A stretch of 62,060 nucleotides of DNA, counting the filler, from Sluysia triapertura (taxonomy: Eukaryota), in assembly GCA_046118255.1 (NCBI GenBank). It is 5 parts of 5 records of this genome, joined end to end, with 100 filler letters (N's around TTAATTAATTAA, not from the genome) between each part and the next. Parts side by side here need not be neighbours in the genome. Positions count along the whole stretch, not along the records: positions 11,513 to 22,612 come from JBJNIA010188887.1; 4 more parts are not named here. One strand, 5' to 3'. This document shows, piece after piece, positions 14,300 to 22,612 of the stretch. The translations under genes were made by a program, and so were the position numbers. The notes below the pieces were generated by a model that did no database searches, was not told the origin of the DNA, and saw only the letters and a list, made by a program, of their open reading frames with translations. The number at the start of each line of letters is the position of its first letter. Positions within the stretch are counted from its first letter, which is position 1.

Positions 14300-16665
14300 A
14301 AATTTCTGCCTAACCCTCTCTGCTGGTGGACCTGACACGCAACAACTCCTGTGTCGCACTAATCAGCATGATACCTCAGGCGTATCTCAAACGTGCTGAA
14401 ATGGAACTCAAAACGAATTGTAACGTCAGTATTTATGCACTACTGATGAACTATCAAAACCACTTTATTCTGCATATTCCGTTATCCTGGCGAATTCCGA
14501 AGAACACTCTTGCATATCTCCGTAAGATGTTGCAGAAAGTTAATGTGGCTCTTGAATTACCAGCAACAACATTGCTGCTAAAGGCACAATTTCCGTACCA
14601 ACAACTCTTGTGACTGCTGCATCCTGGTATGCGGGTAACTCGGAAGAAGGAATACGTTTCTCGACATCAACCCAAAGACAATAAGATCAACAATGCGACC
14701 CAAACAAACACTTTCAAACCCCAAAACTCATCAAAAACTCGAGAAGCAATTGCGGAAATGCGAGAACAAACAATACCGAATAGAATGCAAAATATCACCA
14801 CCAATACTGTAAAACCCAAAGTGACTCAAATATTCAATAGTACTTCATCTTATAATAAAGTGCCACCGGCGTTGTCCAGTCACCGAACTCGGAACCAAAA
14901 AACCCATTCAATTCAGTTTCGAATCCACAACCAAGGCACCAAGACGACCTATATTGACGTGAATCGACAGGAACACATCAATTCACAATGAACCACAACA
15001 GACTAATGAACATTCAACTGTTATGCAACTGCCAATCAGGTGTTATGCAACCGCGAATTAACAACATACATTCGAATAAGTTGCAATCAAGTATTACACC
15101 TACTACTAAAACATCACGAAATCCAAGAAATCAAAGAACCAACAAGGAGCAAAATATCACGTCCGCAAAATCATCGAACCCTCTAATCATATTATTATTA
15201 TGTGGCCAAACCAAAGTGATGATTACCAATACCAAATGTCGACAAGCAATGCCAAAAACAACAACTAATAAAAGAAAGAAAACAAATAGTAGAAATTCTA
15301 TAACAAAGAAATGAGAAAAGACAAGCAATCGAAATAACACCAGATGAACAGAAAATGCACCTCTCCTAAACACAAACCAGCTAACCCACAGAAGAATCAC
15401 ATACACCATCTCTGAGCGCACATGGTTGCAAGTGGTTTCATCTAACAATTTCCCACCCTTCAAAAATTCCCTAAATTCAAATCCTGTTATATCTGATCTA
15501 CCATCCAACATTGCCAAATATACTGCAAACAGTACCGATCTATTTGCGCCCCTATGCAGAGCGGGGCAAACCCAGATCGCAGAACAATAAATAACACCAC
15601 ACTACAATGCAATGGTGCTTTTGCCAGAATAACCTGAAATTCAACCCGAAAGATGGAAACAACCTAAGAAGACACCATCAGAAAAACCGCCATAACGAAA
15701 TGCACATGCAATCTGATATTTAGTTCTCACTTCCACCTAAGAAAATATCTTCTCTGTCATACAACCCCAAAAAACCTACCAGAAAAGTGACGGTAGTTGA
15801 TCTCGACTTTAACCATGAGTCAGATTGTCTAACTACATGCGCCATTGCAATTTATTTCAACCTATTGGAACCCACACTGCCGATCCGGAATCTGTAGTTA
15901 TCGACAGTACGATATCGATCTATAATGACAAGCAATCATTTTTCAATAACTTCCCCCTATCCAAACGCGGGATACTAATAATCTTCAATAATAATGACAA
16001 CAGTTACACCGTAATCGACCCATTGGATCACAGCCTGACCATCTTAAATCCGCACTTCAATCAAGAACCTAGAACGGAAATACAAAATCAAAGCTTCATT
16101 CTTCTACTCAAACGACTCCAATTATGTCCAACTATCACTACAATCAGATATCCTGTGAGAGAACCCAATCATTATCAACAAATACTGCAAAATCAAAATT
16201 GAGAGTACCTCCATGAGTTAATTAATACTTTCAACACGCACGAATGGAAGCCTCGGAAATGCCAGGGAATCTATGTCGAGTGCCTAAAGCAGAATCCATT
16301 TCCAACAAGTGTCTTACACTCAACTTGGGAAATAAGGCTTGGTTATTCATGATCAAAGCGAGAAATAACATTTTCCTCAATTTCGATCCCCAGAACATCC
16401 ACCTACATCTTCCAACGTCGTGCCGATAGTGTGGTTTTGAAACAGATTCCCTTCTGCATGTACTGTGACTGTGTGCCTCAATTGCCTTACCGAAATGATG
16501 ACCCTAGAAGATTCTCTCTCACCAAGGACTCCTCAGCATCAATCACTGGATCACCCCGGCGACCCGAGATACAAGCCAGAGGCACCTCATCTCGACTGTT
16601 CCTGGTCGATGTCAAAACTCAAATGGACCTAAAGAAGAACTTTGAAATTGCTCGGTTCCTCGATA
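14300..16665 (+). mobile_element. Degenerate RLE-type non-LTR retrotransposon (R2/NeSL/Utopia-like), RT domain deleted
   Basis: GC-richer block. Decayed C2H2-like fingers at about 15500-15850 (e.g. KCTCNLIFSSHFHLRKYLLCH). AWLFMIKARNN...CR*CGFETDSLLHVL*LC at about 16330-16480 is a CCHC knuckle. RRPEIQARGTSSRLFLVDVKTQMDLKKNFEIAR at about 16555-16655 is a PD-(D/E)xK restriction-like endonuclease. The 5' boundary is approximate. Confidence 0.8.
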
Positions 16666-16977
16666 GAAGTTTTAATTTTAATTTTAATTAATAATTTTAA
16701 ATTTTAATGTTGATTTTGAATTAAGATTTTAAATTTTAATGTTAATTTCAAAAGAAATAATTACCTTGACTAATTCAATAATTCAAAAAATATTTCCAAA
16801 AATTATCCAAATAAATGTAAAAATCAAAATACAAATTATTAAAATTAATAATGTGTGTACAAATATAAAATCAATCGATAATTTAACTATCAGTGCAAAT
16901 GTATTTTTAGTCACAAAATCATAAAGTCACAAAGTTAGCTATTAACACAATAATTAATAGTCACAAAGTTGTAGTTA

Positions 16978-18162
16978 TTAGTCATCACAATAACATTCCC
17001 CGAATGAGGAATTGGTCTCCAATTTGAAATCTGTGAGGTCGATGATGTTATCGAGTGTAATTGATAGGTATTGGTAATCACTATTGGTTGATGTGTCGTC
17101 GTCGTCCAGGTCAACATTTGGCGAATGGCGAAGATTCAGATTGACGTCAATTACTTTTATTTCATTGAGATCCACTGGTGGAGAAGATGATGGCGATTTT
17201 GTTCTTCGTTTTTTGGTTGAAGATATATTTATGTTATGCGTATTTTGCATGTTTAAAATAGGAGTATCGAAATTAAATTTATTACAAGAATTATTTGTGT
17301 CGCATTTGTTAGTAATATTTTTGTGTATAGTAGAAGAAGAATGAAAGGAGATAATTTTATTATTATCATTAGGAGTTAGATTGATATTGTCGATTTTTAT
17401 GATTTTTTGTTGTGGCAAGAATGATTCATCCCTTGTGCACAAAATGTCAAAGGTAGCAATAGTGTCTCTTGTGTGTTGTTCGAATGTAAAAGTTTTTGGA
17501 GGAAAAGTATAAAGCAATTTAAGAACCTTCCTTGCTTTCGTAATGGGATTAGATGAAGAGTATGAGACGAGATTGGTGCAGGTCAAATTAATGACGCCGC
17601 GCAACCAACCATATGGTATTTCAAGAGCCTTGATTATTAGTTCCGGATAAAAGGATACTAATACCTTATTGTATAAAGAAGTGAGCCAAATTTTCTTTAT
17701 ATGATTTACGTTCTTTGCATTATTAAAATCCTCGTCTTTCAATCCGTGATCTATAGTTAGGAAGTTCTTAATCCTAATGCGAGGTCTTGTTGATTCAGTA
17801 GAGTGAAAGGACTGATGATAGTGAATCTGACAGATTCGTATAATTTGATGCCTATTTTTAAAATCTAAGGCAAATTGTGCTGCAACAAAGATTAAATTGA
17901 TTTTATCTTTTAACGAAATCTCAGGAATGTCGGTGAAGGTCACACACTTCTCCCACTTATATGCGGAGTCTATATCTGAGATGTAAAGGAGAGGATATTT
18001 TTTCAGGTTTAATTGAACTTTTTCTTTGGCGAACAGTACTGCAAAATATGTGGGAACTTCATGAATGTCTATATAAATACGACATTTATCAGATGCGTTA
18101 GTAATGTAAAGCGAGGTAAAACTTTGCAAGCGAATTTGTAAAGGGCTGAAATCTACATACAT
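16978..18162 (-). CDS. Intronless 394-aa orphan protein with a basic NLS-like patch (KKRRTK) and an acidic C-terminus; probably element- or virus-encoded
   Basis: Longest uninterrupted ATG-initiated ORF in the window. Same strand as the adjacent virus-like ORFs. Confidence 0.6.
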   Translation of the reverse strand: MYVDFSPLQIRLQSFTSLYITNASDKCRIYIDIHEVPTYFAVLFAKEKVQLNLKKYPLLYISDIDSAYKWEKCVTFTDIPEISLKDKINLIFVAAQFALDFKNRHQIIRICQIHYHQSFHSTESTRPRIRIKNFLTIDHGLKDEDFNNAKNVNHIKKIWLTSLYNKVLVSFYPELIIKALEIPYGWLRGVINLTCTNLVSYSSSNPITKARKVLKLLYTFPPKTFTFEQHTRDTIATFDILCTRDESFLPQQKIIKIDNINLTPNDNNKIISFHSSSTIHKNITNKCDTNNSCNKFNFDTPILNMQNTHNINISSTKKRRTKSPSSSPPVDLNEIKVIDVNLNLRHSPNVDLDDDDTSTNSDYQYLSITLDNIIDLTDFKLETNSSFGECYCDD

Positions 18163-18544
18163 TGTGATTCTTAAGTTCCTAAAAAAGATAGGGGTGAATC
18201 ATGCTGGCCACAATAACGGTCTATGCCGTTGTAAAAAGCGGAGATGTTGTTGACTATTTTTGCTTGTGGTGTAGTCACGTGGAGTGGTGGTGAAATTCTG
18301 AATGGAACAGTGCATATATAAAAAGAGAAAAATTACAATACAAAATAATAGTTAGTTTATTTATTAATTCATTTTATTTCATTTATTCAATTACTATACC
18401 TTATATAATTTTAGGAGTAAAAAAGTAAAAATCCTAATTATGGTTTTTCTTAATGAATTGATTGATTACTTTATTTTTATTGTATAAGCCTGCCCTCTTG
18501 TAAAAACATCTGCAATCAGATCGTCAGCAACCTTAATTGTGCTT

Positions 18545-18781
18545 CTAATTATGCTTCTGGGACTTTGTTAACCCAGAATGAAAGTTTGGAGGTGGTATTG
18601 CTATTGTATGTTCATTGCTTTTCTTGAAATGTTCTGGGCGATGAACTATCACTTCTTGTACCTCAATGTGCTGGTTTTGAAGATAATGTGGAATATTTTC
18701 TAAGTCATATGAGAATTGATATTTTCCCTTATAAAAAGTATGAATTTCTTTTACCGATATTTTGCATAAAGGGCAGTTCAT
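18545..18781 (-). CDS. Small CxxC-containing ORF (MNCPLC...), possibly truncated; part of the virus-like cassette
   Basis: ATG start and an N-terminal CPLC motif. More Cys-rich sequence follows the stop codon. Confidence 0.35.
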   Translation of the reverse strand: MNCPLCKISVKEIHTFYKGKYQFSYDLENIPHYLQNQHIEVQEVIVHRPEHFKKSNEHTIAIPPPNFHSGLTKSQKHN

Positions 18782-19183
18782 ATATTCTGTGATAGTATAA
18801 TGAAATTAGTTAATAACGCATTTGTAATGAAATTTATGAGAGCAAGGGTATGTTTTTATGAAGTGTTTATAAATGGAACGTTGGTAGATTGAGCAGTGAA
18901 AAGGAAAACAAAAATATAATAAAGCAATAATATTTTAATGTGAGTTAGTTAATTAATTAATCAAAATACTATGTTATGATCCTAATTTATGTACATGGTA
19001 AAAACTATGAAAGATGTTAAACAATATTTTGTAAAGTTAGGTGACCGGCTGGACAGGAAATAACCGTCGACAGCGATGGCTCGTAACCTTTTTTATATAT
19101 ACTGTTTAATCCTATACTTTAATTGTATGTGTCAATCTACGAGGTATTCTTATATACATTTTTATGGCTTCAGTCGCAAGATT

Positions 19184-19732
19184 TTAAATGTTGATGAATG
19201 TTGATTTTAAATTATTTAATTTCATAATTGTGTTGACGATTTTAGGATTAATTAAGCTGATTTTATTAATTTTATTTGGTTTTTTAGTTATTTTTTGAGG
19301 TATTATTGACTTAGTTACAGTGTTCTTATTTAGTTTGTTACTTATAGTTTCCTTAATAATAGGTATAACGAAATCATATAGTTGTGTGATTGACCAATCG
19401 TTCATACTCATTGTTTCGTTAACATAAAGTATCCATACGTATACAGTCGGAAAGGTTAACTTAGGATGATAGCTCAGCATAATTGTTTCTTTAGGTGGTA
19501 TTAATTCTAAAACTGCTTCTCTATCCAATGTTGTAACTAAAATTCTTTCTTGGTAAATATTTAGTATTTTCATGTCTTTTATTTTAAGTCTCTTTGGTCT
19601 TGATTCGTCACAATCTTCGATGTCCCATAAAGAAAATTTTCTGCCAATCTGGGGTTGGCTACAGTCACAAGCCTTTATAGAATTGATTTTGTGAATTCCA
19701 AATAATGCCAATAAAACTATGAAAAACAACAT
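19184..19732 (-). CDS. Truncated envelope/fusion glycoprotein-like ORF (chuvirus/gB class III-like N-terminus)
   Basis: A signal peptide (MLFFIVLLALFGIHKINS) is followed by IKACDCSQPQIGRKFSLWDIEDC...LNIYQE. This resembles the AYDC....SL.DV..C....LLQ start of chuvirus-like/gB-like glycoproteins. At 182 aa it is too short to be complete. Confidence 0.5.
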   Translation of the reverse strand: MLFFIVLLALFGIHKINSIKACDCSQPQIGRKFSLWDIEDCDESRPKRLKIKDMKILNIYQERILVTTLDREAVLELIPPKETIMLSYHPKLTFPTVYVWILYVNETMSMNDWSITQLYDFVIPIIKETISNKLNKNTVTKSIIPQKITKKPNKINKISLINPKIVNTIMKLNNLKSTFINI

Positions 19733-19773
19733 ATTGATGTTCCGAATTGTGAGAATGATTCATTGGTATTTCC

Positions 19774-19836
<63 letters not shown>
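19774..19836. repeat. (TTA)n microsatellite
   Basis: Directly visible. Confidence 0.98.
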
Positions 19837-19839
<3 letters not shown>

Positions 19840-20580
19840 TAGTCGGGATATCGTATTAAGTGGTTCATTTAAAATATTCTTTTCTTCTTTTTCTTTATCT
19901 TTATCTTTTATAATATTTTTCCAACCTCCTATTTGTTCATTTAGAGTACCTAATTTCTTATCAGTAAAGTTTATAACCTTGTCTATTTTTTCTTTAGTTA
20001 CATTGAAATATTATATAAGCTATTATTATTTTGAGTTTATCTCTATTAATTTCCAGCATTAATCTGTCTACTTTATATATTTTTATATTGTCCGTTATCT
20101 ATGAAATCACTAATGTCTGTATTCTTATATTTTTATTCCATAATTTTAATTATTTTGGTTAATGCAACTTTGTATTCCTTTAATTCAGGTAAAAGTGCTT
20201 TATACTTATCAAAATTAGAAAATTTATTAGATAGTAAAGCGTAAATTATAGTTTTAGTACTTAAAGTTTCTTCTATATTCTTATAAGTAATTTTAGTTTA
20301 ATCAATAGGTTTTCTATGTATTGGGGTTGATATTATTGTTTCGTCATCATTATTCTTTCTAGGTCTACCTGGCCTTCTTTTAAATGTATTTGTTTCTTTA
20401 TCTTCAGTTTCAATATGTGGATTTTTATTTAAATCTATTATGTAATCGGGTTTATCATCAGTATAATCATCATTGTCATTTGTAATATCTATGGTTTTAC
20501 TATCATTATGATTATCTTTATCATCTTCCATTAATTCTCTTAATAATGAACGCGGGGTTCTATCTAAATCAACATCGTTA
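19840..20580 (-). pseudogene. Degenerate intronless ORF with acidic region and AT-hook (KRRPGRPRK); dispersed repeat copy 1
   Basis: Frame continues across lesions (..ELKEYK..IMEXKYKNTDISDFIDNG..VINFTDKKLGT..GGWK). Clearly homologous to 59820-60716. Confidence 0.7.
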
Positions 20581-21786
20581 TCATTATTTATAAATAATTA
20601 AAAGAAATAAGAAATTATAATTAAATTGAAATTGCCATTAAATTGAAATATTATAATAAAAACATTTATAAAAAATTATTTAATCAAAATAATATAAAAT
20701 TATTATTTTAAATTAAAACAAATAATAATATTATTAAACTCTAATTGTTTAAAATTATTATTTAAATATTTACTATATTGTTTACGACGCCATAAACTAT
20801 AAACAGGAGATGCTGTTTTAAAAAATTTTAGTAAGAAAAAATATGATATCAATCAATATGTCAAAGTTATTTGTATTTTATAATGTCTTATTTTCTTCGT
20901 GTTATCATTTTATTATAGTATTATTTTATAATAAATTTTGTTATTAATTTTAAATATTATTCCTAATATAATTAACTAAATCATAAAATTATTATTAAAT
21001 TCAAAAATTAAAGAAAATTTAAAAATAAAATATAAAATTTAGAAAATGAAAATATCATAAAACTATTTATATAGTTTTATAAAACTATTTATATATAAAA
21101 CTATTAAATTTAGAAAATTAAATGTATTTTCATAAAATTATTAAAATAAAATTTAGATAAAATTATTAAATTTACAAAAATTAAATAAAATAAAGAATTT
21201 TGTTTTAATGAATTGATTTTCCAAAATGGATCTTTAAGAAAAGCTTGAATATAAATAGGTTAGAAAAAATTTTAAGACAAAATTTTTAGATAATTTTTCG
21301 AGAACAATTTTTTGATAATAAAGAATAACTTGGAAATTTTTCAGAAGAATTATTTTTACTATTCTTTTCCGTGCACAAGTAATTTAGTTTTTTATAAGTT
21401 GTAGATTCACCTTCGCAGGGAATCTTAAAATATACGAAAATTATTTTTTCATTTTTGTGAAACATCTTAACAAGAGTTGCGTAACGTTACAATGAATTTA
21501 TATTACGATCAACCGAGGTTGAATCATATATTTAAAATCACTATCACTATTATAACCGTCAATTGTAATCAATTAACCTAAATATTTTCATAATAAACCT
21601 TAGTGAATTAAGTTTTTGGTTGAGTAATTTTATAATTTATTAATTTATCAATTAATATTTGCTGATTTGGATTTTAAAAATTCATTTATGTTGTATATAA
21701 AATTTTACTAAACTATTAAAAATTTTAAGTATATTTTATAATTAATTTAAATTCTTTAACTTACAAAACACTATGACACTAACGAT

Positions 21787-21960
21787 TGCTGCAGAAAATG
21801 AATTAATTTTCTATCTTCATATTTTACAATTTCTTCAAAGTAATTTCTTTCAAATATTTGATTAACAAAAGTTGCTGCGGAAATAAATTGGCTTTCTACC
21901 TTCTGTATAATTATTTGATTAATAACAGCTGCTGCGATAATAAATTAGCTTTCTTCTTTA
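21787..21960. repeat. Three imperfect direct repeats with core TGCTGC.G..AAT.AATT..(C/T)TTTCT
   Basis: Cores near 21787, 21873 and 21932. Confidence 0.6.
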
Positions 21961-22543
21961 AAATTTATAATTTCTTCAAAATAATTTATATGGATTATAA
22001 TCTTCTCCAATTATATAAAAACAACAGAATAGCTATTGTATAAAAATGTCTTTTTTGTAAATAATTTGTCCTTTTTATTTTATTTCTAAGTTTACAAACA
22101 ATTGGTTGTTATTGTAACAGCCAATTTAATAATGCTAATAATAATAAATTTTTAATAATTTTCTAAATGTTTTAAATATTAAATACTTATTTATTTTAAT
22201 ATAATGATTTTATTTATAACTACTATAATAATAATTTTAAATATTTAATATTTACATATTTATGATAATTTAATAATTTTTATTAAATTATTTTTCCGAT
22301 TAAGTAACCGTGAAAATCGACTTTGGCAACTTAAACTAAACTTTTAGTTTCCAACCAATCAAATCACTGAAAACTTCTGTAAGTTTCTTTATCCATATAA
22401 AGTATTTAAGTTTGCTATTTAAAAACGTTCCAGTATAATCCAAAAAGTATATAAAATATTGTTGTAATCCGAGTGCTTTTTCAAACAGTTCGACAATCTT
22501 TGATATATATGATAAACAAAGACACAATTAAAAATCAATTTAA

Positions 22544-22612
22544 CCCATTCGCTGCCAAGGACGAGTATACTCGTCCTACTTTAAATGTATTATAACATGC
22601 AGGCTTTTGAAT
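22544..22612 (+). mobile_element. piggyBac-like element left end (cut by the gap)
   Basis: TTAA followed by CCCATTCGCTGCC and the perfect palindrome AGGACGAGTATACTCGTCCT (22558-22577), typical of piggyBac termini. Confidence 0.65.

Follow-up and report, generated by a model that had tools for sequence, protein, structure and literature searches.

We report here on a 62,060-nucleotide stretch of DNA from Sluysia triapertura (the window), and in particular on a cassette of minus-strand open reading frames (ORFs) within positions 11513-22612, which correspond to contig C188887 of a 619-Mb, AT-rich assembly of 263,945 contigs. The cassette is very probably a non-autonomous copy, decayed and internally deleted, of a Ty3/Gypsy long terminal repeat (LTR) retroelement present in high copy number. 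This retroelement carries a gB/chuvirus-type envelope glycoprotein gene (env) between gag and pol; its host is likely to be a flatworm. Below, L-numbers denote genomic loci or contigs of the same assembly and P-numbers denote protein relatives found in databases.

The first-pass annotation of this DNA described four intronless minus-strand ORFs: an acidic AT-hook protein (20298-20531, motif RRPGRPRK), a signal-peptide protein of 182 aa with a hydrophobic start and a cysteine motif (19184-19732), a CxxC protein of 78 aa (18545-18781) and an intact 394-aa orphan (16978-18162). All four ORFs are present as described and each has many homologues in the genome, so they are not chance ORFs. We found them to be fragments of one decayed retroelement rather than four genes. 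The AT-hook ORF belongs to a long polyprotein that early stop codons and frameshifts have broken up, and the CxxC ORF corresponds to the C-terminal half of a RING gene that is itself disrupted (18895-18437). The parts of the window copy are as follows, all on the minus strand:

20298-20595, minus strand: acidic AT-hook segment of the gag-env-pol polyprotein; similarity to other copies ends at about 20595
19733-20315, minus strand: Bcl-2-like helical segment and linker before env, with premature stops and frameshifts; the Bcl-2 assignment is weak and below the Pfam cut-off
19526-19732, minus strand: first ~70 codons of a chuvirus/gB-type envelope glycoprotein, with the hydrophobic leader and first cysteine motif
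19517-19525, minus strand: junction of a ~7.7-kb internal deletion, with a 7-base microhomology common to env and a 3' accessory gene
19115-19516, minus strand: 3' part of an accessory ORF, joined in frame to the env start; frameshift near its end in this copy
18437-18895, minus strand: RING-finger accessory gene with an arginine-rich tail and premature stops; the CxxC ORF is its second half
16978-18281, minus strand: gene for a predicted cupin/double-stranded beta-helix domain and an ISG20-like DEDDh pseudo-exonuclease; ~156 bp absent at ~18183, leaving the 394-aa ORF
16670-16989, minus strand: first ~320 bp of the 3' LTR, starting TGTGA and overlapping the last codons of the 394-aa ORF gene

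The class of the element emerges from longer contigs of the family, in which the order is CCHC gag, acidic AT-hook segment, helical segment, env, aspartic protease, reverse transcriptase (RT), RNase H and integrase. The stretch from env to integrase lies in that order on single contigs (L066, L070, L071 and L074) and, in the relative P0113, within one 3036-aa ORF. The protease-RT-RNase H-integrase order that marks Ty3/Gypsy elements is found in L066, L071, L074 and P0113; this region is deleted in the window copy, which is why no polymerase was visible there. A walk from paralogues, which the first-pass annotation had proposed, does reach RT, integrase and LTRs on longer contigs, and the longer paralogues are linked to the other ORFs and lack introns. 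The integrase is followed by a further protease-like domain, by ORFs for membrane proteins, by the RING gene and by the 'orphan' gene (L129, L126, L128); this further domain resembles an aspartic protease (L129:1191-2288) and occurs likewise in P0113 and P0115. Upstream, gag-like ORFs follow the primer site, and a CCHC knuckle in L071 is matched by zf-CCHC at an E-value of 5e-4, which falls narrowly short of the curated cut-off. The LTR measures 1163 bp in a solo copy (L137), has the ends TGTGA...TCACA and is flanked by a 4-bp target duplication, and a primer site starting with TGG follows the LTR end in L075 and L158; Rfam gave no matches on three LTR-bearing loci. Summed tiling distances between copies put the full element at ~16-17 kb, and the best RT identity to database proteins is 57-58%. 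The element is therefore a Ty3/Gypsy element of GAG-ENV-POL type, and not a chuvirus insertion, a Bel/Pao element or a Maverick: the earlier suggestion of an env-bearing mobile element stands, and the three classes it had considered do not. Full elements would be expected to encode a single polyprotein, processed by host signal peptidase together with the element protease, and to be released by budding in enveloped particles.

The envelope gene was first glimpsed as a weak match of the 182-aa ORF (residues 2-56, E-value 0.008) to PF24664. This family has 79 matches in the genome, the best of them at 1.5e-69 in longer copies, and none in 14 control genomes. The protein exceeds the PF24664 cut-off and, on sequence alone, is a class III (gB/chuvirus-type) glycoprotein. 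The N-terminus of the 182-aa ORF was thus correctly recognised as the fusogen remnant of an enveloped mobile element. The same cannot be said of the whole protein: residues 1-~72 are envelope and the remainder comes from an accessory gene whose other copies show a hydrophobic C-terminal segment. At least 151 genomic matches to the ORF were found (150 of 2042 candidates scored), and among those listed most cover only residues 1-75 or only ~65-170, with the best 12 matching in one piece. Copies that match residues 1-75 go on into a long cysteine-rich glycoprotein (L025, L028).

This chimera results from the ~7.7-kb deletion, which joins the env start to the 3' accessory gene at 19525-19517, a point at which the two parental sequences have a 7-base word in common. 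In contigs L126 and L160 the two sides of the junction lie several kb apart with pol between them, and the lost part, which measures 4.7 kb in L066/L071 and a further 2.9 kb in L129, comprises most of env and all of pol. Alignment places this junction in 16 contigs, and a pattern search, which gave no control matches, likewise in 16; together they give at least 18, the window included. One deleted copy (L145) retains the primer site and gag and another (L147) the LTR end. The deletion likely arose through template switching by RT, and the shortened RNA would likely have been copied and re-inserted in trans by the enzymes of full elements, recombining with them. Other internal deletions are seen in the family (L160, L097, L128, L198), some of which join integrase in frame to accessory genes.

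The window copy is damaged in further ways. It matches other copies from 20595 to 16670, with unrelated repeats on both sides; because similarity ends at ~20595, it is 5'-truncated and lacks a 5' LTR and gag. Its 3' LTR begins at 16989, and everything past the first ~320 bp has been swapped for an unrelated repeat. Stops and frameshifts have disrupted the accessory membrane gene, the RING gene and the Bcl-2-like region; the last of these, with its linker, is also interrupted by an AAT repeat that has expanded (~19837-19775). The earlier phrase 'possibly infectious' does not apply to this copy.

The supposedly intact orphan proved to be neither intact nor an orphan. At least 108 matches to the 394-aa ORF were found in the genome (105 of 4271 candidates scored), and homologous ORFs have 470-600 codons. 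The window ORF is short by ~85 N-terminal residues, owing to a gap of ~156 bp with a frame change at ~18183; 40 locus rows carry extra sequence there and no other fetched locus is continuous across it. What the gap removes is most of a predicted cupin domain. A structural model built from 34 natural rows is confident only in its first 135 residues (predicted local distance difference test score, pLDDT, of 64-87 for residues 11-130), and this N-terminal domain resembles double-stranded beta-helix proteins: VIA aligned 128 residues to vCPH (Z 10.1, root-mean-square deviation 3.0), with ALKBH6, Ofd2 and ALKBH3 tied, and Foldseek returned cupins and viral AlkB. There is no conserved HxD motif. One His is kept in 16/17 rows, another in 15/29, and two Glu are conserved; the modelled domain may have a metal site other than HxD...H.

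The C-terminal domain is modelled with a pLDDT under 50, and because the model is unreliable there its fold rests on sequence profiles. A profile of 34 copies searched against 1.84 billion proteins found nine relatives, three of them with RNase_T matches. When relatives were aligned jointly with the family, the profile matched ISG20L2 (E-value 1.1e-14) and ISG20 (1e-7), and the reciprocal search recovered the family. Other searches found nothing: the profile of 34 copies alone found no PDB nuclease, Pfam found nothing real in the 394-aa ORF and its paralogues, and a word-based search for homologues of the whole accessory protein gave 0 matches among 4996 candidates. Atlas matches to exonucleases scored 0.77-0.80, which is a lead only, and pairwise comparison with P0124, a relative that retains the active site, detected no cupin-level similarity. 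Taken together, the gene is predicted to encode a fusion of a cupin-fold domain with an exonuclease domain of the ISG20-like DEDDh type.

This exonuclease domain is predicted to be catalytically dead. The first four residues of the D, E, D, H, D set are each kept in 0/34 rows, the His column being the least sure of the alignment, and the last D in 24/34; the acidic and His residues are kept in 4/7 aligned relatives. The gene has nonetheless a median dN/dS of 0.09-0.19 (from the 177/561 pairs with measurable dS), which points to strong purifying selection. Sister Gypsy families of the same genome carry an exonuclease gene with an intact motif, downstream of the integrase or of RT and membrane-protein ORFs (L211:1435-2325, L213, L217, L228, L229), and L218 is a further sister Gypsy locus listed with an exonuclease accessory gene. 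Because the degenerate exonuclease is strongly constrained and the sister families keep the active site, an RNA-binding role in the conflict of retroelements with small-RNA defence is suggested. We predict that the protein binds RNA but does not cleave it, and it would most likely shield or handle the RNA of the element, a role that we put forward tentatively. Our literature search, which left most subscription papers and Repbase outside its scope, found no account of a cupin-DEDDh accessory gene.

A conserved arginine-rich motif closes the RING gene; it is full in 27/44 distinct rows and is matched by the Pfam REV family with an E-value of 0.079. This tail recalls HIV Rev, the product of an accessory gene 3' of pol which acts on element RNA; the likeness in function is by analogy only. 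A RING gene also lies downstream in a more distant family with a gB-type env (L063). Such families in the same genome place this env before the protease or after gag (L063/L064 on C194822, L065, L067).

Several observations weigh against our interpretation, or against parts of it. No copy with an unbroken polyprotein was found: the frame is open across env in 0/10 copies, from gag to the next motif in 0/2 and from protease to RT in 0/5. These frames are closed because all copies are decayed, and the single gag-env-pol ORF is accordingly pieced together from overlaps; it is open from the Bcl-2-like motif into env in 8/17 copies and from env into the protease in 5/15. The Bcl-2 assignment is weak (Pfam E-value 0.0034, below cut-off; model pLDDT 52). 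Among PDB sequences 35/38 matches belong to the Bcl-2 family, with a best E-value of 0.18 and the top two unrelated, Foldseek rows are mostly Bcl-2 at E>1, and VIA gives the Bcl-2 family a Z of 5.8 that is not the top match. The call is weak but agrees across three methods. Segments exist at positions that would fit the ubiquitin-like (Ubi2/SUMO-like) and dUTPase-like domains of related elements, but neither has a profile match and the searches returned nothing relevant. The host is likely to be a flatworm, one COX1 (L236) reading AAA at conserved Asn positions as in the flatworm/echinoderm code. This assignment is not secure, because three distinct mitochondrial COX1 contigs of fish-like type (L233, L234, L235), likely contamination, are present in the assembly too; host genes searched for taxonomic signal gave no match. 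Finally, a tree of the right flank of the deletion (36 rows, three rows of unknown status having been dropped) rejects a single origin (p-AU 0.0001), whereas the left-flank tree (41 rows) does not (p-AU 0.36). Repeated deletion at a hotspot is therefore as possible as amplification with recombination, and the trees are compatible both with a single deletion after which copies recombined with full elements and with recurrent loss at the same place.

These trees bear on an alternative in which selection has maintained the deleted form as a semi-autonomous satellite lineage, still in need of its own gag, Bcl-2-like and accessory proteins, and perhaps the env/accessory chimera. The in-frame fusion is common to at least 18 contigs, and six copies, the window copy among them, form a supported clade on the right flank (99/93). 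The pN/pS of shared changes in deleted copies is moreover low in the Bcl-2-like part (0.09, 12 copies) and in the nuclease gene (0.06, 5 copies), but these values are not separable from inheritance through recombination with full elements. The chimera itself looks to be under relaxed constraint, with a shared pN/pS of 0.40 in its env part, compared with 0.05 in undeleted env starts, and of 0.60 in its accessory part. Given also that 8/12 of the best one-piece matches contain stops and that the family has several other, unrelated deletions, we consider a selected satellite unlikely.

Two other explanations fare considerably worse than this. That the envelope fragment is a non-retroviral endogenous chuvirus glycoprotein, or the remnant of an env-bearing Bel/Pao element or Maverick, is suggested by its membership of PF24664 (Monjiviricetes_fusion) and by the capture of such genes by Bel/Pao elements as reported in the part of PMC7642597 covered. 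The collinear contigs already contradict it: env is in frame with a retroviral protease, Ty3-type RT, RNase H and integrase follow, and LTRs and a primer site bound the whole, while Pao peptidase, RNA-dependent RNA polymerase, nucleoprotein, pPolB, ATPase and capsid are absent among the 47 proteins scanned (no wider genome search was made for these). We regard this origin as scarcely credible. Only marginally less improbable is a domesticated host locus that makes use of the 394-aa ORF or of the beginning of env. Both the 182-aa and the 394-aa frame are indeed open, but open frames of such length are common among copies, both ends of the locus are truncated, the Bcl-2-like and RING genes are broken, and a private deletion has left little of the cupin domain. 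Our strongly favoured account of the cassette thus remains that of a decayed Ty3/Gypsy deletion copy.

The surroundings of the cassette hold other repeats. Positions 14250-16660, which replace most of the 3' LTR, were considered as a long LTR and ruled out; they are a separate dispersed repeat, GC-richer, C/A-skewed, without a long ORF and unrelated to the retroelement. The 2 kb upstream of 20595 contain two further non-coding repeat families (20900-22370), and positions 13127-13424 hold a short decayed fragment that by eye resembles the C-terminus of a Tc1/mariner transposase. In another part of the window, 60728-59827 on the minus strand is a second fragment of the same element family, comprising the segment that precedes both the AT-hook and the Bcl-2-like part.

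The cassette is debris of a known kind of element, and its remaining value lies in the accessory gene set. A more ambitious reading, speculative and in our estimation rather doubtful, is that the family evolved an RNA toolkit in the style of complex retroviruses, in which a captured cupin-ISG20-like exonuclease without catalysis serves as an RNA-end shield or decoy against host PIWI-interacting RNA (piRNA) trimming, beside a RING protein with a Rev-like tail, and that precisely these genes were retained by a deleted satellite lineage as it spread. The occurrence of this gene in active and in dead form, in sister families within one genome, would permit a direct test.

The layout of the element has precedents in other systems, for each of which the comparison draws on part of the cited paper. 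GAG-ENV-POL elements of gB type have been reported in Nematoda, Bryozoa and Platyhelminthes (PMC13524379, in part). Among them the flatworm errantiviruses Smed_errantivirus_1-6, with listed spans of 14.5-18 kb, are likened to our element by layout: they too have a Ty3/Gypsy pol, a gB-type env between gag and pol, and multiple copies, and the env row of Smed_errantivirus_1 shares its cysteine layout with L025 by eye (PMC13524379, in part). Unlike these, the window copy is internally deleted, and the passages covered of the errantivirus text contain 0 mentions of 'Bcl' or of 3' RING and nuclease genes (PMC13524379). The planarian Burro/GYPSM1 encodes Gag, a ubiquitin-like domain (Ubl), BCL2 and env in frame, followed by protease, a dUTPase-like domain, RT, RNase H and integrase, and exists in thousands of copies with accessory ORFs (PMC6431247, in part). 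It thus shares with our element the gag-env-pol layout, the BCL2-like region before env being putative in ours, the high copy number and the presence of accessory ORFs, but differs in exceeding 30 kb, our element at ~16-17 kb being about half as long, and in having two to three CCHC knuckles compared with the one seen here (PMC6431247, in part). Its cargo appears to be different too: no BIR, MATH or ankyrin match was found in the family ORFs scanned, BIR matches genome-wide number eight, and the portion of the Burro account covered makes no mention of 3' RING and cupin-DEDDh genes (PMC6431247).

For the accessory genes the nearest parallels are more distant. The bdelloid LTR elements Juno and Vesta carry an exonuclease gene, ORF3, of the same DEDD superfamily, likewise downstream of pol; theirs is an RNase D-like DEDDy enzyme with its catalytic residues kept, in elements which lack env (PMC5408684, in part). 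Ours, in contrast, is of the ISG20-like DEDDh type, is fused to a predicted cupin domain, is catalytically degenerate and sits in an env-bearing element. Inactive DEDD derivatives are described as acting in piRNA biogenesis (PMC5408684, in part). CERV of Cer1, the product of an accessory gene 3' of pol, acts on element RNA and keeps the fold of an enzyme predicted to be inactive, a likeness to our element in role only and by analogy (PMC10309623, in part). The layout of the element is, in sum, already published, and it is the accessory gene set that appears to be new.

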